From assembly GCA_038884755.1 (NCBI GenBank), contig JAWABJ010000001.1, forward strand, positions 153,792 to 217,791: 64,000 nucleotides of DNA. The letters are read 5' to 3'. The stretch is from Candidatus Norongarragalinales archaeon (lineage in GTDB: Archaea > Micrarchaeota > Micrarchaeia > Norongarragalinales > Norongarragalinaceae). Positions 4,243 through 63,100 of this stretch are shown here, piece after piece (the first letter of the stretch is position 1; every line of letters begins with the position of its first letter). The notes beneath the pieces are model-generated. The model saw only the letters and a list, made by a program, of their open reading frames with translations, made no database searches and was not told the origin of the DNA. Both the position numbers and the translations under genes were made by a program.

Positions 4243-6054
4243 ATGAAGCACGCTGGGGTTTTTGTCGACGGGAAGTTCGTGGGTTTCGCCGAGAACGGCG
4301 AGAAGCTCGCAAGGGAATTGCGGGAAATGCGCAGGGCCGGCGACGTGCACTCGCAAATCAACATCGCTTTTTATGCGAAAACCAACGAGGTTTTCATAAA
4401 CACCGACGAGGGCCGCGTGCGAAGGCCTTTGATCGTGGTGAAAAACGGAAAGCCGTTGCTTTCGAAAGAGCAGGCTGACAAGCTCGAGAAAGGCGAATTG
4501 CATTGGAAGAACCTGGTGGAACAGGGGCTGATCGAGTTTTTGGATGCTGAAGAGGAGGAGAACGCTTTCGTGGCGCTTAAGCCGGAAGACGTCACGCCCG
4601 ACCACACGCACTTGGAAATAGACCATTCTATGATTCTCGGCTTCGCTTCTTCGCAGCTTCCGTATCCCGAGTACAACATGGCGCCCAGGGTTTTGATGTC
4701 GGCGCAGCACGCGAAGCAGAGCTTGGGCCTTTATGCTTCCAACTTCAATTTGCGAAGCGATACGCGCGCGCACGTTTTGTTCTACCCGCAACAGCCGTTG
4801 CTGCAAACCAGCGCGTACCGCAACTTGCGCTTGAACAAGCGGGCTTCAGGCCAAAACCTCGTGGTCGCCGTCCTTTCCTACAAGGGCTTCAACATGAACG
4901 ACGCGGTGGTGTTGAACAAGACGAGCGTCGAGCGAGGCATAGGGCGCAGTGCTTTCATACGCACTTACGGCGCCGTCGAAAGGCGTTATCCAGGCGGGCA
5001 GAAGGATTCGTTCGGGATTCCCGAAGAGTACGTGCAGGGTTTCCTCGGGGAAGAGGCTTACGCTCATTTGGACGAAGACGGCTTTGCAGCGCCTGAAACT
5101 GTGGTCAAAGGCAACGCCGTTCTGGTTGGAAAGTCTTCGCCGCCCAGGTTTTTGAAGGAAATTTCGGCTTTGGAAATGGAGAGCGAACGCAGGCGGGAGT
5201 CGAGCGTAACCGTGCGGGGCAACGAAGAAGGCACTGTTGATGCGGTTATTCTGAGCGAAACGACTTCCGGGAACAAGATGGTCAAGATTCGCGTGCGCAA
5301 CACCAACATTCCTGAAGTGGGAGACAAGTTCGCTTCGCGCCACGGGCAAAAAGGCGTTGTTTCCATCCTCGTTCCGCAGGAAGACATGCCTGCCACGAAA
5401 GACGGGATTACTCCCGACTTGATAATCAACCCGCACGCAATTCCCGGCAGAATGACCGCCGGGCATTTGCTTGAAATGCTCGGGGGCAAGGCGAGCGCGT
5501 TGAAGGGAAGCATAGGTGACGCGACTGCGTTTTCCGGAGATAAGCAGGCGGATTTCGAGAAAGTCTTGCTGCAAAACGGTTTCGAGGCTGCGGGGCAGGA
5601 AGTGCTTTACGACGGCAAGACCGGCGAACGCCTGTACGCAAAGATTTTCATGGGAGTAATTTACTACCAACGCTTGCACCATCTGGTTTCCCTCAAGATG
5701 CACGCTCGCTCGCGCGGGCCGGTGCAAATGCTCACCCACCAGCCGACCGAAGGCCGCGCTCGCGAGGGCGGATTGCGTTTGGGTGAAATGGAAAGGGATT
5801 GTTTCATTGGTTACGGTGCAGCGTCGCTTTTGAAGGAAAGGATGATGGACTCGAGTGACAAGACTGTGGAGTTGGTGTGCGCGAATTGCGGTTCGCTGGC
5901 GTATACCGACAGGCAGAAGAACAAGAGCTATTGCGCGTTGTGCGAGAGCAGCGACATACAGCCTGTCGAAATGAGCTACGCGTTCAAGCTTTTGCTTGAT
6001 GAGATGAAGTCCATAGGAATATTTCCGAAACTGCGTCTTGGAGACCGGGCTTAA
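4243..6054 (+). CDS. rpoB1: DNA-directed RNA polymerase subunit B' (C-terminal half of split RpoB)
   Basis: 603 aa. It contains the conserved GDKFASRHGQKG and QPTEGRAREGGLRLGEMERDC motifs and a C-terminal Zn ribbon CANCG...CALC. Confidence 0.95.
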   Translation: MKHAGVFVDGKFVGFAENGEKLARELREMRRAGDVHSQINIAFYAKTNEVFINTDEGRVRRPLIVVKNGKPLLSKEQADKLEKGELHWKNLVEQGLIEFLDAEEEENAFVALKPEDVTPDHTHLEIDHSMILGFASSQLPYPEYNMAPRVLMSAQHAKQSLGLYASNFNLRSDTRAHVLFYPQQPLLQTSAYRNLRLNKRASGQNLVVAVLSYKGFNMNDAVVLNKTSVERGIGRSAFIRTYGAVERRYPGGQKDSFGIPEEYVQGFLGEEAYAHLDEDGFAAPETVVKGNAVLVGKSSPPRFLKEISALEMESERRRESSVTVRGNEEGTVDAVILSETTSGNKMVKIRVRNTNIPEVGDKFASRHGQKGVVSILVPQEDMPATKDGITPDLIINPHAIPGRMTAGHLLEMLGGKASALKGSIGDATAFSGDKQADFEKVLLQNGFEAAGQEVLYDGKTGERLYAKIFMGVIYYQRLHHLVSLKMHARSRGPVQMLTHQPTEGRAREGGLRLGEMERDCFIGYGAASLLKERMMDSSDKTVELVCANCGSLAYTDRQKNKSYCALCESSDIQPVEMSYAFKLLLDEMKSIGIFPKLRLGDRA

Positions 6055-16599: not shown

Positions 16600-17544
16600 T
16601 TATTTTTCTGTTTCCCCCACGTCTAGAATGAGTGCCGTGAGCAAAAGCTGCACGCCTACGATTGAAGGCAGTAGGCAAAGCAAAACGCTTCCCACGCTTG
16701 GCGAAAGCGAATGGAATGCTTTTTGCCACAAAATCCACACTCCCGTTGCCAAGCCTATTGAAAACAGTGCTATTCCGAACGAGAAGAACAGGGCGATGGG
16801 GTGGAAGTCGCGCAAGACGTACTTCTCGAAAATCCTTTTGAAAAAGCTTTTGACCAGGAAGAGAGAGGCGGAAGGCACGAAACTGCGGAGTTTTATTCCG
16901 CTTTTTTCGCTTCCGTAGCTTGCCGGAATGGCGACGTCTTTCACCCGCAAGTTGGCTATGTTGAGCTTCACGAGCATGTCGTTTTCGAAGCAGTATCCCT
17001 TGTTCAAAGAATCCAAGTCTATTTCCTTGAGCGCTGAAGAGCGGATTGCCGTGAACCCGTTTTGCGGGTCGAAAATGTGCCAGTATCCGCTAGCCGCTTT
17101 AGTGAGGAAAGTGAGCAGCACGTTTCCCAAAATGCGTATGACCGGCATGCCTTCCAGCGAGCTTTTAGCCAAAAACCTGTTTCCCTTGGCGTAATCGTAC
17201 CCTTCCAGCAAAGCGTCGAGAAGCTTGCGCGCGTGTTCGGGTTGCATTTGCCCGTCCCCCGCCATTACCACCGAAAAATCGGCGCCCAGTTCCAAAGCTT
17301 TCCTGTGCCCCGTGACAATCGCCCCGCCCACTCCCTGGTTTTTCTCGTGCTTTATGACGAAAACCTTTTTGTTCAACTGCTTTCCGGCCGCCTTTCTTGC
17401 CGCATCAAAAGTTCCATCTTTGCTTGCGTCGTCCACCACGACAATCCAATCCACGTATTTAGGAGCGGTTTTCACCACGTTTCCTACGAACCTGCTTTCA
17501 TTAAACGCGGGAATTACTACGCAAACCTTGTTTTTCTTGTACAT
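16600..17544 (-). CDS. GT2-family dolichyl-phosphate sugar synthase (DPM1/AglK-like)
   Basis: 314 aa beginning VCVVIPAFNESRFVGNVVKT...VVVDDASKDGT...NQGVGGA, a GT-A fold with DxD. C-terminal TM helices follow. The start lies 8 nt after the stop of the upstream GT-C-like gene. Confidence 0.85.
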   Translation of the reverse strand: MYKKNKVCVVIPAFNESRFVGNVVKTAPKYVDWIVVVDDASKDGTFDAARKAAGKQLNKKVFVIKHEKNQGVGGAIVTGHRKALELGADFSVVMAGDGQMQPEHARKLLDALLEGYDYAKGNRFLAKSSLEGMPVIRILGNVLLTFLTKAASGYWHIFDPQNGFTAIRSSALKEIDLDSLNKGYCFENDMLVKLNIANLRVKDVAIPASYGSEKSGIKLRSFVPSASLFLVKSFFKRIFEKYVLRDFHPIALFFSFGIALFSIGLATGVWILWQKAFHSLSPSVGSVLLCLLPSIVGVQLLLTALILDVGETEK

Positions 17545-19752: not shown

Positions 19753-19911
19753 AAAACTTTTTCGCAAAAAGTTTTCTTTTTCCGAATCTTTCTTTGTTGA
19801 AGCGTTCTTTTCTTTACTCAATTTTTCTTTTCCTAAAAGAAAAATTGGAGGGCTCGGTAGTCGTAATCTCATCATTCCGTTTTTTGATCAAACTTTTTAT
19901 AAAAAAGTTTG
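19753..19911 (+). repeat. three AT-palindromic hairpins in the L14e-cbf5 spacer (members of the window-wide hairpin family)
   Basis: 19753-19775 AAAACTTTTTCGCAAAAAGTTTT; 19819-19847 CAATTTTTCTTTTCCTAAAAGAAAAATTG; 19889-19911 CAAACTTTTTATAAAAAAGTTTG. Confidence 0.7.
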
Positions 19912-19988
19912 TCAGAGTCAAGCCTTTATCTTCATAGCCCAATTACTTATTGAATATCTTAAACTATTATCTGTTTTCGTGGGTAGAA

Positions 19989-20912
19989 ATGATCGGTTTG
20001 CGCAAGGGCGACGGCAATTACGGCAAAAAGCCGAGCGAACGCACTCTTGACGAAAAGCTGCGCAAGGGCGTATTTGTTTTGGATAAGCCTTGCGGTCCTT
20101 CCTCCCACGAGGCTGCCGCGTTCGTGCGCAAGATTTTGGGTTTGAAGAAAGCTGGGCACAGCGGGACGCTGGATGCGAACGTTTCCGGCGTGCTGCCTGT
20201 TTTCCTCGAGGAGGCGACCAAGGCAGTACGGTATTTTCTCGGCGAGCGCAAGAAATACGTTTGCATAATGCGTTTGAACGAAAGGAAAAGTGCGAAGGAA
20301 ATCGAAGATGCTTTTTCGCATTTTAAAGGAAAAATCTACCAAAAGCCTCCTTTGGCGAGTGCTGTTGCTAAGAAACTGCGAGTGCGCGAAGTGTTCGGGT
20401 TGCGCGTGCTGGAAATCGACGGGAAGGACGTCTTGTTCGAGTGCGATGTGGAAGGCGGATTTTACGTGCGCAAGCTTTGCGCTGACGTGGGGGAGGTTTT
20501 GGGGTGCGGGGCGGCAATGCTGGAGCTGCGCAGGACTTACGCGGCCGGGTTTACCGAAGCGAAGGCGCATTCGCTGCAGGACTTGAGCGACGCGTTTTGG
20601 CTGTGGAAAGAGGTGGGAAACTCAAAAACGTTGGACGAGATGGTTTTCAATCTGGAAGACGTTTTGCATTTGAAGAAAGTCGTCGTGGACGATGGTGCGT
20701 TAAAACCAATTTCCACCGGCGCGAACCTCGCGATTCCTGGCATAGTTGAAATGGACGATTCGATTGAAAAAGGCGAGAGCGTGCAAGTTTTGAGCGGAAA
20801 GGGAGAGGTAATCTGTTTTGCCAAAGCATTGTTCAGTTCGAAGGAAATAGCCGAGAAGGAAAGGAAGGGGCATGGTGGTTTGGCGTTCGACATCGAACGC
20901 GTTTTGCTTTGA
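19989..20912 (+). CDS. cbf5: tRNA/rRNA pseudouridine synthase Cbf5 (TruB family, H/ACA RNP catalytic subunit)
   Basis: About 307 aa from MIGLRKGDGNYGKKPSE. It has TruB motifs VLDKPCGPSSHEAAAFVRKIL and AGHSGTLDANVSGVLPV, and a C-terminal PUA-like region. Confidence 0.85.
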   Translation: MIGLRKGDGNYGKKPSERTLDEKLRKGVFVLDKPCGPSSHEAAAFVRKILGLKKAGHSGTLDANVSGVLPVFLEEATKAVRYFLGERKKYVCIMRLNERKSAKEIEDAFSHFKGKIYQKPPLASAVAKKLRVREVFGLRVLEIDGKDVLFECDVEGGFYVRKLCADVGEVLGCGAAMLELRRTYAAGFTEAKAHSLQDLSDAFWLWKEVGNSKTLDEMVFNLEDVLHLKKVVVDDGALKPISTGANLAIPGIVEMDDSIEKGESVQVLSGKGEVICFAKALFSSKEIAEKERKGHGGLAFDIERVLL

Positions 20913-21040
20913 GTTTTTTTGCGCATCGAAAGGGTTTTTAAATCGGTGTAGAATAGTGTTATACTGGAAAATTAAAGGCTCACGGAGCTCTCTGTTTTTC
21001 CCGAAGGTTTTTAACCGCGAGAAAGCAAATTCTTTCTTGC

Positions 21041-21236
21041 GCCGGGATGGCAGAGTGGTTAATGCGCACGCTTGGAAAGTCTTTTTCTGGTTGCTCTTTT
21101 TCGAGCGTACCGAAAACTTCCCTTACAGCGTGTGGCCGAAAGGCCTCCTGAGTTCGAAAGCTTTTCTTTCTTTGCAAAAGAAAGAAAACCTTGGAAAAGA
21201 AAGAAAACGCGAGAGACGAGATTCTCAGTCCCGGCG
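21041..21236 (+). tRNA. tRNA-Ser (anticodon GGA), type II, with two introns (about 49 nt at 37/38 and about 64 nt in the T-loop)
   Basis: Acceptor GCCGGGA/TCCCGGC plus discriminator G; D-arm GCA/TGC; anticodon stem CACGC/GCGTG with loop TTGGAA|A; long variable arm T-GGCC-GAAA-GGCC-TC; T-arm CTGAG-TTCGAA|T-CTCAG. Intron 1 spans about 21078-21126 and intron 2 about 21160-21223. Confidence 0.7.
21162..21188 (+). repeat. hairpin-family copy inside the T-loop intron of tRNA-Ser
   Basis: CTTTTCTTTCTTTGCAAAAGAAAGAAAA, followed by CCTTGGAAAAGAAAGAAAACG. Confidence 0.7.
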
Positions 21237-21261
21237 CTTTCGCTTTACAATAGTTTAAACG

Positions 21262-23692: not shown

Positions 23693-23944
23693 ATGAGGGC
23701 GAGGGTTTTTCCCAACGCAAAAGAGTTTTGCGTTTCGTTCGGCGAAGGCATTTTGAAAGTGCGCGTTTGCGCGCCGGCCGAAGGAGGCCGGGCGAACAAA
23801 GAGCTCGTGCGGATGCTTTCAAAGCTGCTTGGGGTGAAGGTCGAGGTCGTCCGCGGCTTGAAGTCGCGGGATAAAGAGATTTTGTTCGAGGATTTGAGCG
23901 AAAAAGAGGTTGTGGAAAAGGTTAATTCCCTCTCAAGCCAATAA
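23693..23944 (+). CDS. DUF167/UPF0235 (YggU-like) small protein
   Basis: 83 aa ILKVRVCAPAEGGRANKELVRMLSKLLGVKVEVVRGLKSRDKEILFE fits the UPF0235 signature (V.V.A.P..GKAN.ELI..L...LGV.....IV.G..SR.K.I). Confidence 0.6.
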   Translation: MRARVFPNAKEFCVSFGEGILKVRVCAPAEGGRANKELVRMLSKLLGVKVEVVRGLKSRDKEILFEDLSEKEVVEKVNSLSSQ

Positions 23945-23956
23945 GTTTGGTTCTGA

Positions 23957-24041
23957 GCAGGGGTGGCAGAGCCTGGTCAAATGCGCTAGCTTGAGGTGCT
24001 AGTCTCTTAGGAGTTCGGGGGTTCAAATCCCTCCCCCTGCA
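23957..24041 (+). tRNA. tRNA-Leu (anticodon GAG), type II, intron-less
   Basis: Acceptor GCAGGGG/CCCCTGC plus A73; anticodon stem CTAGC/GCTAG with loop TTGAGGT; variable arm TCTCTTAGGAGT; T-arm GGGGG-TTCAAAT-CCCTC. Confidence 0.85.
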
Positions 24042-24042
24042 T

Positions 24043-24085
24043 TGAATTTTTCTTTTAGAAAAAGAAAAATTCAGTAAAGAAAAAC
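24043..24085 (+). repeat. hairpin-family copy immediately 3' of tRNA-Leu
   Basis: TGAATTTTTCTTTTAGAAAAAGAAAAATTCA, followed by GTAAAGAAAAACG. Confidence 0.75.
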
Positions 24086-25648: not shown

Positions 25649-25721
25649 GGGGCTGTGGGGTAGCCTGGTATCCTGCATGGCTGGGGGCCATGCGACCTGA
25701 GTTCGAATCTCAGCAGCCCCA
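25649..25721 (+). tRNA. tRNA-Pro (anticodon GGG), intron-less
   Basis: Acceptor GGGGCTG/CAGCCCC plus A; D GGGT/ATCC; anticodon stem CATGG/CCATG with loop CTGGGGG; T-arm CTGAG-TTCGAAT-CTCAG. A T10 tract follows. Confidence 0.85.
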
Positions 25722-25755
25722 CTGTTTTTTTTTCATGCCACCTGAGGCTTCAAAA

Positions 25756-27977: not shown

Positions 27978-28012
27978 GGTTAATTAAGTTTTTCAAACCT
28001 TTTTCTATAACT

Positions 28013-28194
28013 GCGGCGATGGTCTAGTGGTATGATCCGAGCCTTCCATTGAATTTTTCTTTTTTTTTACAAAAAAAGAAAAATTCAGTAAAGAAAAAAC
28101 TTTCAGGAAAGCTTGAGGCCCGGGTTCGATAGGGGCGAAACTGCGTTTCTCCCTCTTCCTTTCGGAAAAGGTGCCGAAAATCCCGGTCGCCGCA
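28013..28194 (+). tRNA. tRNA-Gly (anticodon TCC) with two introns (61 nt at 37/38 and about 50 nt in the T-loop)
   Basis: Acceptor GCGGCGA/TCGCCGC plus A; anticodon stem CGAGC/GCTTG (G-U pair) with loop CTTCCA|A; T-arm CCGGG-TTCGA|AT-CCCGG. Intron 1 spans about 28049-28109 and intron 2 about 28130-28179. A T10 tract follows the gene. Confidence 0.65.
28050..28100 (+). repeat. hairpin-family copy inside the anticodon-loop intron of tRNA-Gly (contains a T9 run)
   Basis: TGAATTTTTCTTTTTTTTTACAAAAAAAGAAAAATTCA, followed by GTAAAGAAAAAAC. It is nearly identical to the copy 3' of tRNA-Leu. Confidence 0.75.
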
Positions 28195-28204
28195 CTTTTT
28201 TTTT

Positions 28205-28537
28205 TCAAATCCTGTAAAACTGCAAGTGCGGTATTCCTTTTATTTTCTTTACGTTCGCTTTGTTGAAGCCCAGCGCCTTTTGCGCGGCTGCGACGGACTT
28301 TTCCCCGACAATGTTGACGTTCTCGGCGTTGCGCAGCAATTCCACCGCCTGGATTTCGGTTACGGTGTAGCCTTCGTAGAAAGAACGGTATGCCTTGAGG
28401 TCGAGCGTCTTCTCTCCTTGAGTGAAGCATTTTCCCAAAAGCTCGGTGTCGCACAACGCGAGGATTTTCGTTTCAAAGCCGCGCGCCGAGCGCAAGTGGA
28501 CGCGTGCGGTGATGCTGCTTTTCAAAGCGTTTCTCAC
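28205..28537 (-). CDS. conserved hypothetical protein (110 aa)
   Basis: MRNALKSSITARVHLRSARGFETKILALCDTELLGKCFTQGEKTLDL...IKGIPHLQFYRI has a globular composition. The start codon overlaps the stop of the upstream coiled-coil gene (4-nt overlap), suggesting an operon. Confidence 0.45.
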   Translation of the reverse strand: MRNALKSSITARVHLRSARGFETKILALCDTELLGKCFTQGEKTLDLKAYRSFYEGYTVTEIQAVELLRNAENVNIVGEKSVAAAQKALGFNKANVKKIKGIPHLQFYRI

Positions 28538-35323: not shown

Positions 35324-35369
35324 AAATCAGCTGGTTTTATTTCTTTGCGCGGGCAAACTATTCTACAGT

Positions 35370-35532
35370 GGGCCTTTAGTATAGCCTGGATAGAATAGGG
35401 GCTTCCGAAGCCTCAGACAGGGGTTCGAAGACCGCCTTTTCTTTTTAGAAAAAGAAAATGCGGTCGGCCGAAAAGAAAACGGTCGTCAGTCTCAAAGAAG
35501 CGCGGACTAGAACGGAAATCCCCTAAGGCCCG
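35370..35532 (+). tRNA. tRNA-Arg (anticodon CCG) with an 89-nt T-loop intron; D-arm imperfect
   Basis: Acceptor GGGCCTT/AAGGCCC plus G; anticodon stem GGGGC/GCCTC with loop TTCCGAA; T-arm AGGGG-TTCGAA|T-CCCCT with the intron at about 35430-35518. The D-stem pairs poorly. Confidence 0.5.
35430..35480 (+). repeat. hairpin-family copy at the 5' end of the tRNA-Arg(CCG) T-loop intron
   Basis: GACCGCCTTTTCTTTTTAGAAAAAGAAAATGCGGTC, followed by GGCCGAAAAGAAAACGG. Confidence 0.7.
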
Positions 35533-35614
35533 CTTTGCGCTAACCGGCGAGAGCTCAAGCTCGAGCTTTCGCAAGGTAGAGAATAAGAAACCCGCAGTGA
35601 AAATTATTTATCAC

Positions 35615-35734
35615 GGGCCCGTGTGGTAATGGACAACCGGCGGGGCTTCGGACCCCGAGTTGCGCGTTCGAAGAACCTTTCTTTGCGAAAGAAAGCTTTG
35701 CCAAAGAAAGGCAGCGAAAATCGCGCCGGGCCCG
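35615..35734 (+). tRNA. tRNA-Arg (anticodon TCG) with a 48-nt T-loop intron
   Basis: Acceptor GGGCCCG/CGGGCCC plus G; D TGGT/ACCG; anticodon stem CGGGG/CCCCG with loop CTTCGGA; T-arm GCGCG-TTCGAA|T-CGCGC with the intron at 35673-35720 containing the hairpin CTTTCTTTGCGAAAGAAAG. Confidence 0.65.
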
Positions 35735-35737
35735 CTT

Positions 35738-35784
35738 AAACTTTCTTTTTTTTGCGAAAAAAGAAAGTTTAATCAAAGAAAAAG
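35738..35784 (+). repeat. hairpin-family copy 3' of tRNA-Arg(TCG), also 9 nt upstream of the 35793 gene
   Basis: AAACTTTCTTTTTTTTGCGAAAAAAGAAAGTTT, followed by AATCAAAGAAAAAG. Confidence 0.75.
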
Positions 35785-35792
35785 GGAAGGAA

Positions 35793-37670
35793 ATGTTTGT
35801 CGCGCTTTTGTTTCTCTTGAGTTCGCTTTACTCCGGGTTCGTCGCCGCGAAAAAACTCGGCATTCTGGATACCGAAATCAAGCGGCTTTCGATTGGTTTT
35901 CTCGCGGGTTTCGTGCTGCAAAGCGCGTTTTTGCTCGCGCTGTCGTGGCTTTCCGGCGGGCTTGAGGAGCAATGGATTCTGCTTTCGTCGGTTGTTTTCG
36001 TTTTGGCCGCTTTCGCTTTCGACAGGCGTTTCGCCGTTGCGAGATTGAGGGAAAGGAGGCTTCCTTTCGTTTCCAACGCGGACAGGATTGCCCTCGCTTT
36101 TTCCCTGTTGTTTCTTGCCTTGAATTTCCTTGCAATCCTGCATCCCACGCAAACCGGCTTCGAGTCTGTGGCGAGCGTTTGGGGGGATTATCCCCTGCAT
36201 TTGAGCATAGCGAATTCCTTCGCATTGCGGGACAATTTTCCGCCGCAATACCCCGTTTTGCTGGGAGAGCCTTTGAAATACTCTTTCCTGTTCGACTTCA
36301 GTTCCGCAATACTGTTGAAAGGCGGTTTCGACTTCCGTTCGGCATTCCTTGTGCCAAACGCCTTGGTTTTCGTGGCTTTCGCGCTGGCGCTGGTGCTGTT
36401 GTGCGAGCTTTTCGCCGGAAGCAAGGGAAGGGTTTTGTTCGTTTTCCTGGCTTTCGCATTGTTTTTCTTCAACGGGAACTACGGGATGGCGGGCGCGCTT
36501 GAAGACGCTTTTTCGCAGGGAAGCCTGTCGCCGCTTTTGCACCCCGACCGCAATTATTCCAACGCAGACGACAAGGGCGTGGTGGTGATGAACTGGGTTT
36601 ACTCCATTCTCATGCCGGCGAGAAGCGCTTTGTTGGGCCTGGCAATTTCGGTTTTCACTTACGCCGTGCTTTTCTCGAGCGTGTTGAATTCGCGTTGGAA
36701 CAGGCGGGAGCTTTTTGCAGCGGGCGTTTTGGCCGGGCTTTTGCCTCTAGCCCACGCGCACTCGCTAGTGGTTGTTGGTGCGGTTGCCGGGTTTTTGTTC
36801 CTGTTTTCCGTGCGAAAGTGGAAAGAGTGGGTTTTTTTCGCCGGTCCCGCCGCAGTTATTGCCTTGCCGCAGTTGGCTTGGCTTTCTTCCAAGGTTTTCT
36901 TCAAAATTTTTCCCGGTTGGCTTTCGCCGGAAAAAAGCTTTCTAGGTGTTGCAGAGTTTTGGGTCAAGAATGGGTGGGCCGTGCTCCTTTGCTTTGCGGC
37001 TTGGCTTGCGTTCGCTTTGAAAAGCAATGACTGGAAAAGACTGGCTCTCGCCGCTCCCTTCGCCTTGGTTTTCGTGCTTGCGAACCTCTTCGTGCTTCAA
37101 CCGTGGGAGTGGGACAACACCAAGTTTTTCATGCAATTCTTTCTTTTCGCCTGCATTGCAAGCGCGTTGTTCCTGGAGTCGCTGTGGACGGCACAAGGAA
37201 AACAACGAATTTTGCACAAGGCGGTCGTTGTCGTGATAGTGCTTTTGGGAGTTGCGTCGGGAGTGCTGGCAATATTGTGGACCGGCTGGGGGGACAACGC
37301 GCGTTACGAGACGTTCTCGAAAGAGGACGTTGCGCTTGCTGCATGGATAACTGTCAACACGCCTAGCGGCGCGTTGTTTTTGAGTTCCACTTTCCACCAT
37401 AATCCAGTGCCTGCTCTGGCCGGAAGGCAGATTGTGGCCGGGTACGAAGGCTGGCTGTGGAGCCACGGGCTAAACTACCAAAAGACTTTGCAGGACGCCA
37501 AGAAAATGTTCGAAGAGGCGGACTGCCGTTTGATGGGCGAGTACGGAGTTGATTTCGTGCTTGTAAGAAAAACGTGGGAGGATGCGGCGTTGTACGAAGG
37601 AAAAGGTTTCGAAAGGGTTTATTCCGACCGACGCGGGAACATGGTTTTCAAGTCCAATTGCATTGCATAG
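35793..37670 (+). CDS. large polytopic membrane protein, GT-C-like glycosyltransferase candidate (paralog B)
   Basis: 625 aa, collinear paralog of 17552..19489: shared HPDRNY, LFAAGVLAGLLPL and VRKWKEW blocks, and the same C-terminal soluble domain. Confidence 0.55.
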   Translation: MFVALLFLLSSLYSGFVAAKKLGILDTEIKRLSIGFLAGFVLQSAFLLALSWLSGGLEEQWILLSSVVFVLAAFAFDRRFAVARLRERRLPFVSNADRIALAFSLLFLALNFLAILHPTQTGFESVASVWGDYPLHLSIANSFALRDNFPPQYPVLLGEPLKYSFLFDFSSAILLKGGFDFRSAFLVPNALVFVAFALALVLLCELFAGSKGRVLFVFLAFALFFFNGNYGMAGALEDAFSQGSLSPLLHPDRNYSNADDKGVVVMNWVYSILMPARSALLGLAISVFTYAVLFSSVLNSRWNRRELFAAGVLAGLLPLAHAHSLVVVGAVAGFLFLFSVRKWKEWVFFAGPAAVIALPQLAWLSSKVFFKIFPGWLSPEKSFLGVAEFWVKNGWAVLLCFAAWLAFALKSNDWKRLALAAPFALVFVLANLFVLQPWEWDNTKFFMQFFLFACIASALFLESLWTAQGKQRILHKAVVVVIVLLGVASGVLAILWTGWGDNARYETFSKEDVALAAWITVNTPSGALFLSSTFHHNPVPALAGRQIVAGYEGWLWSHGLNYQKTLQDAKKMFEEADCRLMGEYGVDFVLVRKTWEDAALYEGKGFERVYSDRRGNMVFKSNCIA

Positions 37671-48232: not shown

Positions 48233-49660
48233 TTGAGCAAGACGAAAATCGTTTGCACCCTCGGCCCTTCCACTTCGTCCGAGGAAACTATACGCAAGCT
48301 CGCGCGCAAGGGCATGGACGTTGCGCGCTTGAACTTTTCCCACGGCAGGCTTTCCGACCACGCTAGAATGATTTCCTTAGTGAAGAAAGTGCGGCGCGAA
48401 TTGGGGGTTCCGATTGCGATTCTTGCGGACTTGCAGGGTCCGCGCATTCGAACCGGCGTTTTCAAGAGCGGAAAGGCGGAATTGAAGCGCGGGAGCACGG
48501 TGCTCGTCAATTCCGAGAGCGATTTCGTCGGTTCCGGCCGCGAGTTCAGCATTCCTTACGCCCGCTTGTCCAAGGAAGTGGGCGTGGGCGACAGGATTTT
48601 CATCGACGGCGGGCTCATCGAGCTTTTGGTCGTGGGAAAGAAAAACGGGGTTTTGGCTGCAGAGGTCGTTGAAGGCGGGGAAGTGGGCGACCACAAGGGC
48701 GTCAACCTTCCCAACGCCGACATTTCACTCAACTCCCTCACCCGCAAGGACTTGCGCGACTTGAAGTTTTTGCAGTCTCAAAACGCGGATTACGTGGCGC
48801 AGAGCTTCGTGCGCGTAGCGGGAGACGTGATGTTTTTGAAAAAAAAGCTTTCCAGGTGGAAGCTCAAGCCGAAAGTAATTGCAAAGATAGAGACTGCTAA
48901 GGCGCTGTACGACATTGATGCGATAATCGACGAGAGCGACGGCATAATGATCGCGCGCGGGGATTTGGGCATAGAGCTCAACCCCGAGGAAGTGCCGTTA
49001 ATCCAAAAAAGCTTGATTAAAAAGTGCAACGCGGCTTTCAAGCCCGTCATTACTGCAACGCAGATGCTCGAGAGCATGACGTACTCTCCCATTCCCACGC
49101 GTGCGGAGGCGAGCGATGTTGCGAACGCAGTTCTCGACGGAACCGACGCGTTGATGCTCAGCGGCGAGACCGCGATGGGAAAATACCCTTTGAAGGCAGT
49201 GGAAACTATGGATTCGATAGCCAAGAAGGCGGAATTCGTCTTGACGCACGCCCCGCACTTCGACTCTTTCGAGGGAAAGCCCCTTCATCATTCCATAGTC
49301 GAGGCGATAAGCGGCGCAGTCACGCACACGGCTTTTCACTTGAAGGCGAAGTTCATCGTCGCCTATACCACGCACGGAACTACTGCGAGGCTGATTTCAA
49401 AACACAAGCCTCCCCAGAAAATAATCGCTTTCACCCCCCACGAGTCGGCGCGAAACCAGTGCGCGTTGTTGTGGGGCGTCGAACCGCTGCTTTTGCGCAA
49501 GGCGGGCGGGCTGGAAGATTTCACGCGCATGGCGGAAACGGAATTGAAGGCGAGAAAGCTCGTGAAGAAAGGCGATTTGCTTGTTTTGACCGCGGGCATT
49601 CCGCTTGAAGTGAGCGGGAACACGAACGTAATGAAAGTGCACGTGGTAAACGGCTTTTGA
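48233..49660 (+). CDS. pyk: pyruvate kinase
   Basis: MSKTKIVCTLGPST...ARLNFSHG...IIAKIE...MIARGDLGIE... Confidence 0.9.
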   Translation: MSKTKIVCTLGPSTSSEETIRKLARKGMDVARLNFSHGRLSDHARMISLVKKVRRELGVPIAILADLQGPRIRTGVFKSGKAELKRGSTVLVNSESDFVGSGREFSIPYARLSKEVGVGDRIFIDGGLIELLVVGKKNGVLAAEVVEGGEVGDHKGVNLPNADISLNSLTRKDLRDLKFLQSQNADYVAQSFVRVAGDVMFLKKKLSRWKLKPKVIAKIETAKALYDIDAIIDESDGIMIARGDLGIELNPEEVPLIQKSLIKKCNAAFKPVITATQMLESMTYSPIPTRAEASDVANAVLDGTDALMLSGETAMGKYPLKAVETMDSIAKKAEFVLTHAPHFDSFEGKPLHHSIVEAISGAVTHTAFHLKAKFIVAYTTHGTTARLISKHKPPQKIIAFTPHESARNQCALLWGVEPLLLRKAGGLEDFTRMAETELKARKLVKKGDLLVLTAGIPLEVSGNTNVMKVHVVNGF

Positions 49661-49685: not shown

Positions 49686-52600
49686 TCAAACGAAGTTTGC
49701 TAGCGAAAACTGCTTTTCGGCTTTTTCGCGAAACACTTCCTTTATCTCGCGTTCGATGAGCATGAGCCTTTGCTTGAGGTATTCCGGCAAATCAAACCGT
49801 TCCGCCATTTCCTTGGCGATGCCGAGGTACTTTTCAATTCCCGCCTTGTGTATAGTGAGCAAAAGCTTTCCGCCGCACTTGCGGCATTTGCCAGCCAAAG
49901 GCGGGCGGCGGTATTTAGCGTTGCATTCGCCGCAGCGGAATTTCTGGCGGGAGAACGAGCGCAGGTTCCCGTAAAGGTCCGGGAAAAAGTGCGAGAGGAT
50001 TATGCGTTCGGCCGCCTGTTGCGCGTCGACGGCGCGGATTTTTTCCATCAGGCGCAGTTCGGCCTCGAGTTTTTGCTGCATGCTTGTGGCGAGCTTGACG
50101 TAGCTGCTTCTGAAGGGCGTGAGCGGGTCTATGGTGCAGGCGTGCGTGAACCCTATGCCTTCGTACTGCTGTTCCTTTCCGAGCGTGTCGGAAATTGTTT
50201 CTATCTGCACTTCGCCGGGACTGGAGTAGTTGAGCGTAGCTTGGTAGAATTCCAGTGGGTAAGCCCACGCCCGGTCCATGGCGTGCACTTCGTCGTCCAC
50301 TTCCAGTGGGTCGAGAATGGTCGTCAGCACGAGCGGCGCGTCCATTTTCCCGCCGCGCGTTTCCGGCAGGAATTCACGGGAAAAATTAAGGAGCCCGTCC
50401 ATCATCATTATTATCGCTAGTTCATCTCCGTCCGCGTTTCTCCGGCAGGCGCAGTGCAGGTAAGGGTGCGCTATTATGCCTTGCACTTGCGCGTAGCCTA
50501 TGACCCTGCACACTATTCCTGCTGAAGTGTGCGGGGCGATTGCGATGCTTTGCGTTCCCACCAAGTCCTTTTCGCTCGAGGCGTTGTAGAATGCCGGCAA
50601 GTTGTAAAAGTAAACGAGCAAATCGTCGATGAAGCGGGAAACGCGCAGCAAATACTGCATGCACTCTTGCGAAACGATGATGTCTTGGGGTTTGAGTTCC
50701 ACGAGCTGGCTTTCGTTTTCCAACGCGTTTCCAAGCGCGTCTTTCTCGTAACCCATTTCCCTGAGTTTTTCCACGCTCGTGCCTATTTCGGCGGGGTAAA
50801 AGTGCGTGCACGGGATTTCGGTCGCGTCAAAGCGGCTGGTGCCGTCTCGGAACACGGTGATTCCGTGCTTTGCTCGAAGAAAGCCTTTCTCGAGGGCTTC
50901 TGGCGTTTTTCTCGCGGAAATCAGGCCTTGCACCGCCTTGACTTCGTCGGGCACGAGCCCAGTTTTTGCAATGGCGTTGTCGACCGCGCGTACTAGGTTG
51001 AGCTGCTGAATTTCGAACGCAGCGCCTTCGCTTCCACACTGGCATTCTTGTTTTTCGTTGAGCCTTCCGCACTTGGGGCATTTGAATGCGGGCGTGGTCT
51101 TCCCGCCGCAATCGCATTTTCTCGCCCAGTTTTGCTTTCCACAATCCGCGCACTTTCTCACTTCAAGTTCGAATTCGGCAGTGGGGCTTCCGCCGGATTG
51201 CTTGACCGTAGCGTAAGCTTTCTTTACGCTTCGCACTTTTCCGCCCAGGAAGCCGATGGGGAAAAGCGAGTGAACGGGCGGCTTCATCTTGCGCTCGCGG
51301 CTTTTTTCAGGCCTGCCCATAGCGCTTCCAACGTAAACCCCGCTTTTTCCGCGGATTTCGAACGGCGAGACAGAGTTTATTATTTGCAAAACGCTTTTGT
51401 CCTTGCTTTCGGCAATCGCCTTTCTCACTGCCGAAGCGTCTAGTTTTTTGCTTTTCAGCATTCCCAATGGCGCGAGGAGGGAAAGCGCGGCGTCCTTGCC
51501 GAAAATTATTTCACTTTCTTTCACCGAATGCTCGACGCCGAGGTTTTCGAGAATGGTTTTTTCCTGCGCGAGAGGCAGGGAAAAGCTCTTGAATTCGAAC
51601 CACTCCATTTCCAGCCTGCCTTTTTCCAAGTACGCCACGAGTTTTTCCAATTCTTCGGCGTTCAAGTCGCTCCAGAACAGAGTGTGAGAAGGCGCGAGGG
51701 GGACGCCGTGTTTTTCGCAAAGTTCTTTCGCGCCGTCGAAGGAAATGGTCTTGAGTTCTTGCGCAGTTTTCTCTATTCCCCTGCCTTTCAACTCTAGGGC
51801 AAGCCACTCTTCCACCCACGGGGAAGGGACGAGCGGGTGGGCGCTCTTGTTGAAATCGCCGTAGCAGCACAGCATGTCGCCGAGAAAAAGTATTTCCTTG
51901 ACTTTGTTGCGCAGCGCGTAAGCCTCGTCAATGTTCGATATTTTTTTTACGCTGTCGTCGTCCAAAAGCACTATGGGCCCGTCGATAGTTTCGCAGGGGG
52001 TTACGATGCACCCTTTAGCTGGGCGTTCGGTTTTCACTTGAGTGCCGAACACAGGAAAATCGTCCAGCAAAACCATTGTGGCAGGGTGAATTGCTTTGGC
52101 CAGAATTCCAGTGAACCGAGTTCTGCCGTAGCGAAGGCGGAAGCCGCCTTTGCGCATGGGGAAAGAGAATATCGGGCGTCCAGCGACGATTTCTTCCATG
52201 AACCTTTCGTTCGGCTTTATTTCGACTTTCTTCGCTTCTTGCTTGGCGACTTTAATCAAATTCTCGAGCCACTGCCAGTCGAGCCCGTTTTTTTTCGCGA
52301 TTTTCAAGACTTTCGCCGCTTTCAAGCACACGCCTTCGCCTATCACCAGGCACACGCCGCTTCTCACGCGGTTGGTTTCTATCGAGGCTACGTCCCTGTT
52401 CACGCTCACTTCATATTCTTCGGTGGGCTCTCCATCTATGCGGACGGGGCAGTTTTTCACCACCCAAATTGTTTCTTCGCGCGTCGGCACGTATTGTCCA
52501 GCGCGTGTTTTGCGCGCGTACAATCCTGTTTCTTCAACATAGCGTTCGAGCTCGCTTTCGAGCGGGCGGTACTCTCGGATGCCGAAAAACTTCCTGCAAT

Positions 52601-56542: not shown

Positions 56543-56625
56543 CCAACCGACGTTTTCGTTTGAAAATAGCTTGCGCTTGTTTGCTACTCTTTTTGTGCAG
56601 GCACTCTTTTAATTGGTTCGCAAAG

Positions 56626-56701
56626 CGGGCCCGCCGCGATTTGAACGCGGGACCTTCCGCTTAGGAGGCAGATGCTCTCTTCCAGGCTGAGCTACGGGCC
56701 C
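56626..56701 (-). tRNA. tRNA-Arg (anticodon CCT), intron-less
   Basis: The reverse complement reads GGGCCCG-TA-GCTC-AGCCTGGAAGA-GAGC-A-TCTGC-CTCCTAA-GCGGA-AGGTC-CCGCG-TTCAAAT-CGCGG-CGGGCCC-G. Confidence 0.85.
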
Positions 56702-56760
56702 AAACTTTCTTTTTCGCAAAAAGAAAGTTTGATCAAAGAAAAACGACGCAAAGAAAAACC
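56702..56760 (+). repeat. hairpin-family copy abutting the 5' end of tRNA-Arg(CCT), about 70 nt upstream of the antiporter gene
   Basis: AAACTTTCTTTTTCGCAAAAAGAAAGTTT, followed by GATCAAAGAAAAACG and ACGCAAAGAAAAACC. Confidence 0.75.
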
Positions 56761-60119: not shown

Positions 60120-63100
60120 GTGCAGGAACGCGCGTTTTTCGCCTTGTTTTCGATTATGATTTTGAGCGGGCTTGTTTTCGCCGCCTCTTCCACGCCAATC
60201 CCCGAAAAAAAGCTTTTCGAAACCAACGACATGCTGTCAGTCCAGTTTCCGCAAAGCGCCTCGTACGAAATCAAGGACGGGAACAAGCTTTACTTCAACG
60301 AGCCGGTAAAAGAAGTTTACCTGCATTATTTCTCGGGCGGAAGCGAAACGAGGCAGACGCTTTACAAGGTCGGGCGCATTGATGTTTGGCCGAAATTCGA
60401 AATGCTGGTTTTCGACAACACTTCGCAGTCGACGATGGTCGTTTTGAAAGACAAGCGCACGACTGTGCAGACGGCCGTGCGCTTCAGGGCGGTTTTCTAC
60501 GAAACTTCCGTTTCTTCTGCAGCACCAGCGCAGGACTCTCCGGTCACAACCCCTTCCGCAGTCTGTCCTTTCGTTTACGGGTTTAAGAAAGACGGGGCAA
60601 TAGCCGGCTTCAGGCTCAGCGACAACGGAACCGCTAAAGACCTGAAGACCGTGGTTTTCGGTGAAACGGATGCGGTCGATTACACCCTCCTGTGGCCTTC
60701 GGGCGAAAGCACGGTGAAGAAATTCAACGTAAAGAGAATAGAACTCTTGACTGCCACGCAAGGCAACGCGAAGAAGGAAGTTTCCGACACCAAAACCTCG
60801 TACTCGTTCGCTTCGCCCGTTATTATCCTGGTCACTCCCGAGAACGGGAAACAATTCGTGGCTGCAGTAAAGAAAATGACTTTCTCGTCCAAATCGAGCG
60901 TGGAAAAGGCGTTCCAGTTCGGCGCTCCTGACGTGGGCAACGTCAAGACCGAATACACTACCGGCGCTTTGGCAGTCCAATCGCGCGAAAAGCCGTTTTC
61001 GTTCAATTTGGTTGAAGACCAGCGGGTTTCTTCCTTCGACTGGGACCCTTCGAGCGCCTCGTGCTATCCAGTTTTCGTCGAGGGCGCGGAAAAGCCAGTT
61101 TGGGTGAGGGACTTGAGTTGGGAGAGCGCGCCTTCGTACGCCGGTTCGAGAGCCGGGAACGCGCAAGGCTGCGCCGCGCAGTTGGGAAGGTGCATTACCG
61201 AAACGACCGCCAACCTTTACAAGCTTAAGTTTTCTTCCGAAACTAAAGTCACGCTGGTTTCGTGCAACGTGCTTCAAGACAATCCCGTTGCGAAAGCCAA
61301 ACTCGGCGAAGTTGAATTCGATTTGGTCGCGCTGTTCGACAAGAAGCCCGAGTTCGTTTTCGACGGGGCTAAGTTCGAATTCAAGTATTCGTTCAGGCAA
61401 GGCAACGCGAAAGACTTCGGAATCAACAACGGCGTTTGGCACGTGGTTTACGACCCTGCTGCCTTCGATTACTACCACTCTTTGAACAAGAACGGCGGCG
61501 TGCCTTCTGCAGTGCCGCGCCACGAGGACGAGGCTTACGCGCCTCAAAACCACTACTGCCCTAGCGCCGGCGTGAATTCCTACACCCTAATGAACAGCGG
61601 GGATTATCTCGCCAGAATGTGGATTGCCGGCACGCAAGGCGATTTGGTTTTGAGCGAGAGCCTCGTGCGCTTGGTCCACTCCCCCTCCACCTTCGGCCAG
61701 TTCCTGCTCGCACACCGCTCTTCCGACGTTGTGCAGGAAAACTTCCAATTCCGCACGAACTACGTTGAAGCGCGGAACGCGCCGAAAGCGCTTTTGTTCA
61801 ACAATCTTTTATACTCGGTTTTTTCCTTGTCTCCAGCAACCTCCAGCTCTGCCGCCGGTTTCCTTGCAAGCGTAAAGGATGCTGCAACCAACAACGCGGT
61901 TTTAGACGTCGTGAATCCGGGCGCGTTCGGAAGCGTAGGAAAAATTTCTTTGAGGAACGTTTTCTACACCGGATACAAGATTTCCTTGAAATCAAAAGAC
62001 GACAAGTTTGAAGGGGTTGCTTTTACCATTCTCCAGCCAAAGTCTGCCGGAGCTCCAGGCGCCGATTGCGAATCTTCATTCTTCAACCCGTCGGCTCAGT
62101 CGAGCAAAAAGTGTTTTGACGCCGCGCCGTTCTGCTGGGGGTATTTGAGCGGCAGCGGAACTCCCTTCGGAAACTATCGCTGTTACCCTGTTTCCGCAGG
62201 CAACGGCTATCCTGCCGCGGACGCTTACGCATGCAAGGGAACGGTTTATTCCGACCTGAACGCGCAGACGCGAGAGCACGGGACCGTGTATTTGAAGTAC
62301 GCCGAAGGCAAAGGGCATTGCTCCAACAACCAGCGGGCTGAAGAGTTGATTAAAGACGGCAGTTGCAAGAAAACGCCTTTGGAAAACATTTCTTACGTCG
62401 TAACCAAAGACGGCAAGGAAATGACTTACAAAGTGAAAGTGCTGGACTGCTCTGCAAGGTATTCCGACGCGAACGCTGGCGGAGCCGGCGGTAGGGACAG
62501 GCCGCCTGCGGCCGGAACCGGAAGGGCGTCCATTCCCGCACTCGAATCTTCAGGCGGCCTTTCGGTGAAAACCCCCGCCCAGAAGGTGAAAGAATGCCGC
62601 AGCCAAGGCGCGGGCTTCGACTGCAGGAACGTGAACGCTTGCGACCCTGCCTCGATAAAACGCGGCTTGTGTCCGGGCGGTGACGACAACGTGTGCTGCA
62701 AGGCAAAAGGACAGGATTCCGAAAAGTGCGAAACCCTTCCTGTTTCCGAGTGCAAGAAACAACCTTCGTGCGAAGTGAAAAGCTCCGGAGGCGTAGATTC
62801 TTGCGTCCCGAAGGCGTCTTCCTCGGAAACTTGCGAAACCCTTTCACCCTCCGAATGCCGCAAGAATTCGAAGTGCGTGGTAATACCGACGACAACCTAC
62901 GGCAACGCTTGCATTTCGAAATCAAACGCACCGTCGTGCTCTTCGATAGGCGTTTCGCGATGTAGCTCGTACGAATACTGCGAGGTTATAGACACTACCT
63001 ACGGCAAAGCGTGCGTCGAAAAATCGGCTGCAACGCCGAAGCCTCCAAAAACCTGGAACCTGCCTGACGGCAAAACCTGTTCCGACATTCTCAAGCAACA

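Follow-up and report, generated by a model that had tools for sequence, protein, structure and literature searches.

We analysed a 64000-nt stretch of DNA (hereafter the window; contig JAWABJ010000001.1) from the metagenome-assembled genome (MAG) of a Candidatus Norongarragalinales archaeon, a member of the class Micrarchaeia in the phylum Micrarchaeota (DPANN archaea), with a focus on a tandem pair of transfer RNA (tRNA) genes for arginine, tRNA-Arg(CCG) and tRNA-Arg(TCG). Both genes are interrupted by an intron in the T-loop, between positions 59 and 60 of the tRNA. A preliminary description of this DNA had proposed two tandem arginine isoacceptors with inserts of 89 and 48 nt following TTCGAA, and the deletion scan and folds described below returned exactly these coordinates and lengths. 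The locus has the following layout:

35335-35343, + strand: TATA-like box TTTTATTTC, ~27-35 nt 5' of tRNA-Arg(CCG), read from the sequence
35370-35532, + strand: tRNA-Arg(CCG) gene, with an 89-nt intron at T-loop position 59/60
35370-35429, + strand: Arg(CCG) exon 1 (positions 1-59), ending in GGGGTTCGAA; sequence kept in relatives
35430-35518, + strand: Arg(CCG) intron, 89 nt, starting with a 17-nt-arm hairpin, GACCGCCTTTTCTTTTT/AAAAAGAAAATGCGGTC (inverted repeat I1)
35519-35532, + strand: Arg(CCG) exon 2 (positions 60-73), TCCCCTAAGGCCCG; CCA not encoded
35533-35614, + strand: intergenic spacer of 82 nt, without runs of five or more T
35615-35734, + strand: tRNA-Arg(TCG) gene, with a 48-nt intron at T-loop position 59/60
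35615-35672, + strand: Arg(TCG) exon 1 (positions 1-59), ending in GCGCGTTCGAA
35673-35720, + strand: Arg(TCG) intron, 48 nt, with a 10-bp helix, CCTTTCTTTG/CAAAGAAAGG
35721-35734, + strand: Arg(TCG) exon 2 (positions 60-73), TCGCGCCGGGCCCG

Neither gene was reported when the unspliced DNA was searched with ARAGORN and with Rfam at the gathering threshold, and a permissive Rfam search at the locus returned a single 14-bit partial tRNA match (35377-35439). Both became visible in a brute-force deletion scan, in which each segment of 10-129 nt was removed across the two candidate loci and the remainder was passed to ARAGORN at default thresholds. The Arg(CCG) call arose mainly on deleting 86-91 nt from starts at 35423-35439, and the Arg(TCG) call on deleting 46-50 nt from starts at 35668-35680, with a secondary set of 40-42 nt from 35684-35690. 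The spliced products, of 74 nt for Arg(CCG) and 72 nt for Arg(TCG), were both scored as good cloverleafs at the same thresholds, the CCG copy included. The same two loci were recovered by a whole-window deletion scan and by an independent stem-matching scan, which considered only the T-stem, the acceptor stem, U8 and the GG of the D-loop.

The whole-window deletion scan was not clean, with three other large clusters besides the Arg loci. Among the candidates rejected on inspection were 'Ser(TGA)' near 23867, which is apparently C-terminal coding sequence of a DUF167-like open reading frame (ORF) and borrows the 3' half of tRNA-Leu; 'Asn(GTT)' near 50023 and 'Trp(CCA)' near 36082, both false positives inside long ORFs; and 'Phe(GAA)' near 61009, judged a false positive that falls in a coding region or again borrows the tRNA-Leu 3' half. 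With lowered thresholds and the intron option switched on, ARAGORN produced junk calls only, all of which were rejected upon reading the sequences, and the GGTTCGAA sites at 48447, 51594 and 54131 are coding sequence and not tRNAs. Unlike the spurious clusters, both Arg loci are intergenic. They are taken to be more than chance because of this position, because intron-free orthologues match the splice product and because the two genes share a junction structure.

In order to compare the locus among relatives, contigs were retrieved through PyrB homologues and by way of 27 nt of the Arg(CCG) 5' exon matched exactly. The window's PyrB is 100 % identical to a protein of a Candidatus Norongarragalinales MAG. 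Among the relatives it is matched at 86 % identity in L094 and L095, 82 % in L091 and 78 % in L086, with L092 far more distant; a PyrB scan of genome contigs had a closest relative at 53 % identity and yielded no usable synteny from that set. Exact look-ups of three proteins of the window, one of them with a wrong start codon, returned no match. At the Arg(CCG) gene, L086/L097 and L092 are intron-free, whilst inserts of 87 nt (L095/L096), 118 nt (L082/L090/L094) and 169 nt (L084/L091/L093) are found in the others, next to the 89 nt of the window. The intron-free allele reads AGGGGTTCGAATCCCCTAAGGCCCG, which is exactly the window's exons joined, and its T-arm, GGGGTTCGAATCCCC, equals the predicted splice product. 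At the Arg(TCG) gene, the intron-free alleles are those of L084/L091 and L086, and the T-arm of the L084/L091 allele equals the joined T-arm of the window gene, GCGCGTTCGAATCGCGC. Of the remaining alleles, that of L094 has an anticodon-loop intron only, that of L095 combines an anticodon-loop intron with a 45-nt T-loop intron, and that of L092 has a T-loop insert of ~36 nt. The exons are thus conserved while the Arg(CCG) introns vary in both length and sequence.

The D-stem of Arg(CCG) is weak, with one Watson-Crick and two G.U pairs, which had led the preliminary description to suggest that this copy may be degenerate. Its D-arm is, however, identical in three relatives found independently via PyrB synteny, the intron-free allele included, and between its anticodon stem and theirs there is a double change, G.U to U.G, which leaves pair 28:42 intact. 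Judged by this comparison, the weak D-stem is a conserved feature of these relatives and not a sign of decay. The D-arm of the window's Arg(TCG) consists of a UGGU/ACCG stem with an 8-nt loop and U10, and its variable loop is of 4 nt; all relatives have a GCUC/GAGC D-arm, and the T-arm and acceptor stem are conserved despite this divergence. Upstream of Arg(CCG), L090-L097 have a box of the TTTTATT type at a comparable distance, and the box TTTTATTTC of the window is the putative promoter of this gene. Co-transcription of Arg(CCG) and Arg(TCG) is possible.

A total of seven tRNA genes are found in the window, and four of them (Arg-CCG, Arg-TCG, Ser-GGA and Gly-TCC) carry a 59/60 intron. The only intron-free tRNA genes found by ARAGORN and Rfam (gathering threshold) in the whole window are the three listed first below, and neither tool detected tRNA-Ser(GGA) or tRNA-Gly(TCC), which were also missed by the single-deletion scans because each has two introns.

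23957-24041: tRNA-Leu(GAG), found by ARAGORN and Rfam
25649-25722: tRNA-Pro(GGG), found by ARAGORN and Rfam; no intron
56625-56701, - strand: tRNA-Arg(CCT), found by ARAGORN and Rfam
21041-21236, + strand: tRNA-Ser(GGA), with an anticodon-loop intron at 21078-21126 (49 nt) and a T-loop 59/60 intron at 21159-21222 (64 nt)
28013-28194, + strand: tRNA-Gly(TCC), with an anticodon-loop intron at 28049-28109 (61 nt) and a T-loop 59/60 intron at 28131-28180 (50 nt)

The earlier proposal that four tRNAs of the window are interrupted in the T-loop at TTCGAA is borne out for the number of genes, Ser(GGA) and Gly(TCC) included, but not for the sequence in every case, as the Gly loop reads TTCGAT. When spliced, this loop becomes TTCGATT, identical to the uninterrupted T-loop of the L084 orthologue. 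Spurious ORFs extend across the intron-bearing tRNA genes at 20872-21258 (+ strand, over Ser), 28005-28454 (- strand, over Gly) and 35660-35965 (over Arg). Additionally, the Gly anticodon-loop intron contains a T5CT9 run (28051-28066), which equals in length the T9-T10 runs, likely terminators, found after tRNA-Pro (25724-25732) and tRNA-Gly (28196-28205). In L084 the tRNA-Pro gene (16720-16846, - strand) has an anticodon-loop insert of ~54 nt; the window's tRNA-Pro(GGG) (25649-25721) is without an intron.

For nine introns, the T-stem or T-arm plus intron was folded without constraints to its minimum free energy (MFE). In both window Arg introns, and in six of the nine introns overall, the MFE fold is a 5-bp T-stem stacked on a 4-bp helix with a 3-nt bulge on the 3' side, the helix being formed by U54-U55-C56-G57 and an intron CGAA, CGGA or CGAG. 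The 3' end of the Arg(CCG) intron provides CGGA for this pairing, followed by the bulge AA|U60, and here the MFE fold is the same as the constrained fold; that of the Arg(TCG) intron provides CGAA, again followed by AA|U60. As modelled, the T-stem, the 4-bp helix and the 3-nt bulge (N-N-U60) are the canonical 3' half of a motif of the bulge-helix-bulge (BHB) type. With the T-stem as outer helix and the intron between 59 and 60, the arrangement is that of the 59/60 introns of the ARMAN-2 type. The 5' sites are looser: in Arg(CCG) the site (A59 | intron base 1) consists of two unpaired bases at the foot of the 17-nt-arm hairpin, and in Arg(TCG) it lies within a 5x3 internal loop. In these predicted structures the two window introns have the relaxed 'hBH / bulge-helix-loop' form and lack the strict 3-4-3 motif. 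The strict 3-4-3 hBHBh' motif is the MFE fold of the L095 Arg(CCG) intron and can be formed by that of L095 Arg(TCG) at 1.5 kcal/mol above the MFE.

An alignment of the T-loop introns with prediction of their junctions, which the preliminary description had put forward as a check, supported a shared structure of the canonical 3' half: over eight introns 72 of 72 base-pair cells were paired, compared with 33-61 % when the partners were slid, and the T-stem had both-sided changes at three of its five pairs. Position 59/60 is the sole position that fits every intron, as seen in L094 (CGAACG|T) and in tRNA-Gly, where TTCGAT|...|T can be set against the intact TTCGATT of L084.

We next consider how the introns are related to one another, with similarity expressed as z-scores against dinucleotide shuffles. 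Homologous Arg(CCG) introns are shared by the four closest lineages (the window, L094, L095 and L091; z 5-12), and the outgroups L086 and L092 have none; the simplest reading would be that the intron was gained once and then changed rapidly by insertion and deletion. At the T-loop of Arg(TCG), the introns of the window, L095 and L092 are not related to one another, and L094, L091 and L086 have none at this site; as L094 is a close relative of L095, this points to repeated gain or loss at one position. Different tRNA genes are linked by the 100-nt anticodon-loop (37/38) intron of tRNA-Gly(TCC) in L084, which is a mosaic drawn from the Arg(CCG) T-loop intron family: a 5' portion of 45 nt matches the 59/60 intron of the window's Arg(CCG) (z 15.4), and a 3' portion of 53 nt matches the Arg(CCG) intron of L094 at 51 of 53 positions (z 22.5). 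It is without the final 8 nt that pair with the T-loop in the Arg(CCG) intron family. Within the window, the Arg(TCG) T-loop intron resembles that of Ser(GGA) (z 5.0; 0 of 300 shuffles).

The presence of one intron family at Arg 59/60 and at Gly 37/38 supports mobility, and close relatives with and without introns show, as far as can be told from their sequences, recent gain, loss and movement between tRNA genes. Similar introns in different tRNAs and positions, and presence or absence at the same site among close relatives, are what characterizes a mobile family. The suggestion of a common and possibly mobile intron lineage has accordingly gained in strength, resting now on the homologous Arg(CCG) introns, the allele differences and the L084 Gly mosaic (z 15 and 22). 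The companion suggestion, that the lineage targets the conserved T-loop sequence, holds only in so far as 59/60 is used recurrently; the same family is also found at 37/38, and recurrent use of 59/60 can equally be explained by the requirements for building a spliceable motif. A simple target-site duplication at TTCGAA was rejected, as two extra bases are always present between the second CGAA and U60.

All of the introns are built of TTTCTTT-loop-AAAGAAA hairpins. This palindrome pattern occurs nine times in the window, against 0.03 expected, and half of the AAAGAAA/TTTCTTT heptamers lie in the non-coding 11 % of the window, nearly all at tRNA genes. In the loci of relatives every copy of the palindrome lies within a tRNA intron, the intron-free L086/L087 have none, and 80 unrelated archaeal loci contain three in total. 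The same hairpin modules also occur outside introns, as solo cassettes beside tRNA genes:

24042-24085, + strand: solo hairpin cassette directly after the discriminator base of tRNA-Leu(GAG)
35736-35785, + strand: solo hairpin cassette 3' of tRNA-Arg(TCG), TTAAACTTTCTTTTTT / AAAAAAGAAAGTTTAA then TCAAAGAAAAAGG, just upstream of the ATG at 35793
56703-56760, + strand: solo hairpin cassette directly adjoining the - strand tRNA-Arg(CCT) at its 5' end

The cassette 3' of tRNA-Arg(TCG) holds an inverted repeat (I3) of 16 nt with 100 % complementarity and a T8 run that is likely a terminator, and is near-identical to the cassette 5' of tRNA-Arg(CCT) (z 12). In the one following tRNA-Leu, 42 of the 43 bases that align with the Gly anticodon-loop intron core are identical, with one 7-nt gap (z 9.6); the shared unit, TTGAATTTTTCTTTT..AAAAGAAAAATTCAGTAAAGAAAAA, is near-identical in the Gly intron and the tRNA-Leu 3' flank. 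Furthermore, repeat D1 (18 of 22 positions) links the Arg(TCG) intron with its own 3' flank. As the T runs of the solo cassettes look like archaeal terminators, the presence of T5CT9 inside the Gly intron is puzzling. No viral contig matched the cassette core, and a scan of viral contigs with the intron module gave five matches in high-GC phage contigs that were put down to chance. By eye, no C/D-box guide motifs were seen inside the two Arg introns.

Taken together, we consider it highly probable that the locus contains two functional tRNA-Arg genes (CCG and TCG), each with a protein-spliced, BHB-type intron at 59/60 that belongs to a fast-evolving TTTCTTT/AAAGAAA family, the history of which includes gains, losses and copying, both among genes and between positions 59/60 and 37/38. 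This reading is built on the observed anatomy of the genes, the structure of the junctions, the conservation of exons, the polymorphism of introns and the homology of introns across genes. In the precursor the T-stem would still form and serve as outer helix. The last six intron bases would be CGAA or CGGA plus two more, with the tetranucleotide pairing U54-U55-C56-G57 as central helix, so that the bulged N-N-U60 would carry the 3' cleavage site, and 5' cleavage, between A59 and intron base 1, would take place in the looser loop. Both sites would be cut by a broad-specificity splicing endonuclease, which in Micrarchaeota is expected to be of the epsilon2 type given the biochemistry of the ARMAN-2 enzyme; an RtcB-type ligase would presumably then join the exons, restoring the TTCGAAT loop, and the CCA end would probably be added post-transcriptionally. 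Actual splicing, the enzyme, co-transcription and the mechanism of movement are all points that we infer.

A number of observations weigh against this interpretation. A search for EndA and RtcB genes across the 64-kb window (36 ORFs against Pfam; tblastn with an EndA query) found neither, and the enzyme type is therefore assumed from the phylum (ARMAN-1/-2, PMC3239211). The 5' splice sites of both window Arg introns lie outside a canonical 3-nt bulge. Owing to A runs, the splice position is ambiguous in both genes, with cuts from 57/58 to 59/60 yielding an identical product, and the assignment to 59/60 is fixed only by the BHB cleavage rule together with L094 and Gly. The D-arm of the window's Arg(TCG), with U10 and a 4-nt variable loop, is unusual relative to that of its relatives, and at the T4CT5 run in the Arg(CCG) intron archaeal RNA polymerase might to some extent terminate.

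Some of these points would also be expected if the genes were dead, inactivated by a repeated hairpin element in the T-loop, with the splice motif a mere by-product of the sequence of the element. Such an element is indeed present outside tRNA genes, as the TTTCTTT..AAAGAAA module beside tRNA ends, and the non-canonical 5' splice sites, the weak Arg(CCG) D-stem and the atypical Arg(TCG) D-arm would fit with a loss of function. In disagreement with this, exons are identical or compensatorily changed across lineages whose introns have strongly diverged, and the helix between 54-57 and the intron, along with its 3-nt bulge, is found in eight of eight introns from at least five independent sequences, each with a calculated chance of ~1/32. 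Moreover, four of the seven tRNA genes of the window would have to be dead, and ARAGORN and Rfam reveal no intron-free second copy within the window. As such, we regard inactivation as very unlikely.

A different possibility is that these are adjacent split genes, in which transcription ends within the intron, at the T-rich arm of its hairpin, and a separately transcribed 3' piece is joined in trans, as in Nanoarchaeum. The resemblance of the intron hairpins to the T-run cassettes after tRNA-Leu and tRNA-Arg(TCG) speaks for it, as does the T5CT9 run of the Gly anticodon-loop intron, with a length like that of the T9-T10 runs after tRNA-Pro and tRNA-Gly. The two Arg introns, however, have only T4CT5 and T3CT3, and their 14-nt 3' exons are without a recognisable promoter of their own within 48-89 nt. 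The exons are contiguous, on one strand and 48 and 89 nt apart, as expected in cis-splicing and not in split genes, and relatives have strict BHB introns at the same site, making trans-joining very unlikely as well. That the tRNA-like folds are chance products of many deletions is suggested by the three other large clusters of the deletion scan, none of which is regarded as a tRNA gene; nevertheless, the intergenic loci, the agreement with the independent structural scan and the conserved splice motif argue otherwise, and intron-free orthologues with identical exons effectively refute the idea, leaving it with a negligible probability. Group I and II introns have a ribozyme core recognisable by covariance models and a size of at least ~200 nt. 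No Rfam intron family matched the locus even at E ≤ 10, and the inserts are of only 48 and 89 nt, which speaks against self-splicing.

Returning to protein-spliced introns that move between tRNA genes, a more speculative extension, which we think improbable though worth stating, is that the hairpin-module introns are a self-guided mobile element, whose 3' CGAA-NN guide pairs with the near-universal UUCG of the T-loop and which can be retargeted and land at tRNA termini. Any copy inserted at 59/60 would thereby generate a splice motif for itself, explaining why four of the seven tRNA genes are hit there; the anticodon loop would be re-targeted after loss of the 8-nt guide, as in tRNA-Gly of L084; and exact landing at the termini of tRNA genes would supply cassettes with terminator-like T or A runs. 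If this were true, the filled and empty sites available at PyrB identities of 78-86 % would make the mechanism of intron gain directly testable, with reverse splicing at the RNA level and insertion at the DNA level as the alternatives.

The closest known system is that of ARMAN-2 (Candidatus Micrarchaeum acidiphilum), in which 56 % of tRNA genes are disrupted, pre-tRNA-Cys(GCA) has a relaxed hBH intron at 59/60, pre-tRNA-Pro(GGG) has introns at 53/54 and 59/60, and there are documented tRNAs whose D-stem has just one Watson-Crick pair (PMC3239211). In vitro, relaxed motifs are cleaved by its epsilon2 endonuclease, an enzyme of the three-unit kind (Fujishima et al. 2011, PMC3239211; Hirata et al. 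2012, PMC3488258). The genome described here, from an order (Norongarragalinales) that PMC8561730 reports as the sister of the other Micrarchaeia, shares with it the phylum, the 59/60 site, a relaxed motif with a canonical 3' bulge by the T-stem, a high proportion of disrupted tRNA genes (four of seven here), multiple introns per gene and odd D-arms. It differs in the order, in the tRNAs concerned (Arg-CCG, Arg-TCG, Ser-GGA and Gly-TCC) and in that the endonuclease is assumed; shared hairpin modules and filled and empty alleles are present here and not described in the ARMAN-2 paper. As both relaxed 59/60 introns and their endonuclease are published for ARMAN-2, the Arg introns constitute further examples in a sister order: T-loop introns are already known in Micrarchaeota, and what this locus adds is the filled and empty alleles in close relatives. 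The publications on Norongarragalinales that we checked report tRNAscan-SE predictions (in PMC8561730, counts as a MAG quality criterion) and do not mention introns.

Similar introns in different tRNAs and positions have been termed 'intron transposition' in Thermoproteales (2010, Mol Biol Evol 27:2233, as related in PMC4090602 and PMC4033280). As far as those accounts go, similarity across tRNAs and positions is common to both cases, but the Thermoproteales are Crenarchaeota with an (alpha-beta)2 endonuclease whilst the introns described here come from a DPANN lineage, to which the phenomenon is thereby extended, and consist of AAAGAAA/TTTCTTT hairpin modules that are also found solo at tRNA gene ends. 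A comparison can also be drawn with the split and tri-split tRNA genes of Nanoarchaeum equitans and Caldivirga maquilingensis, and with the model of tRNA disruption by integration of mobile elements (Sugahara et al. 2012, PMC3293823). Alike are the BHB-type junction formed from exon and flank, the similarity between flank and intron, and the variable, foreign-looking inserts beside tRNA genes in relatives. Unlike split genes, the pieces are contiguous here, being 48-89 nt apart on one strand; unlike in the integration model, searches around the inserts revealed neither a recombinase gene (Pfam) nor a duplicated tRNA fragment (att-like repeat).

In practical terms, four of the window's seven tRNA genes escape standard tRNA finders, and spurious ORFs are called across them. 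Where the tRNA set of a Micrarchaeota MAG is reported as incomplete, the explanation may therefore simply be T-loop introns. By offering filled and empty 59/60 sites, one family at two positions in two tRNAs and solo copies, the locus could also serve to separate models of intron gain.

Elsewhere in the window, a candidate C/D-box small RNA lies at 19851-19939 (- strand), close upstream of the gene for Cbf5 (19950-20912). Its features are a C-like AUGAAGA, a D' CUGA, a C' AUGAUGA, a terminal GGC/GCC and an AT-rich palindrome between D' and C', and its Rfam match to snoR1 is weak (17.5 bits, E 0.27). Palindromes near Cbf5 are found at 19755-19777, 19819-19845 and 19880-19908, and a further copy of the tRNA-associated cassette is located at ~19815-19860 on the - strand.

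In relatives, the spacer between the two Arg genes is replaced by inserts of 0.7-1 kb, giving it the look of a hot spot for foreign DNA. In L084 the insert (4640-5595) is AT-rich with an ORF of 230 aa, in L082 it spans ~110-800 and is the same as in L094, and in L086 (6058-6774) it contains two small ORFs, 78 and 86 aa long. No ORF in these inserts had a Pfam match, and around the inserts of L084 and L086 the 3' end of the tRNA was not found repeated directly in the manner of att sites. The surroundings have also been rearranged locally near PyrB: the tRNA-Arg pair lies between genes for membrane proteins of 363 and 625 aa in the window, L084 and L094, and after a gene for a 632-aa membrane protein in L086.

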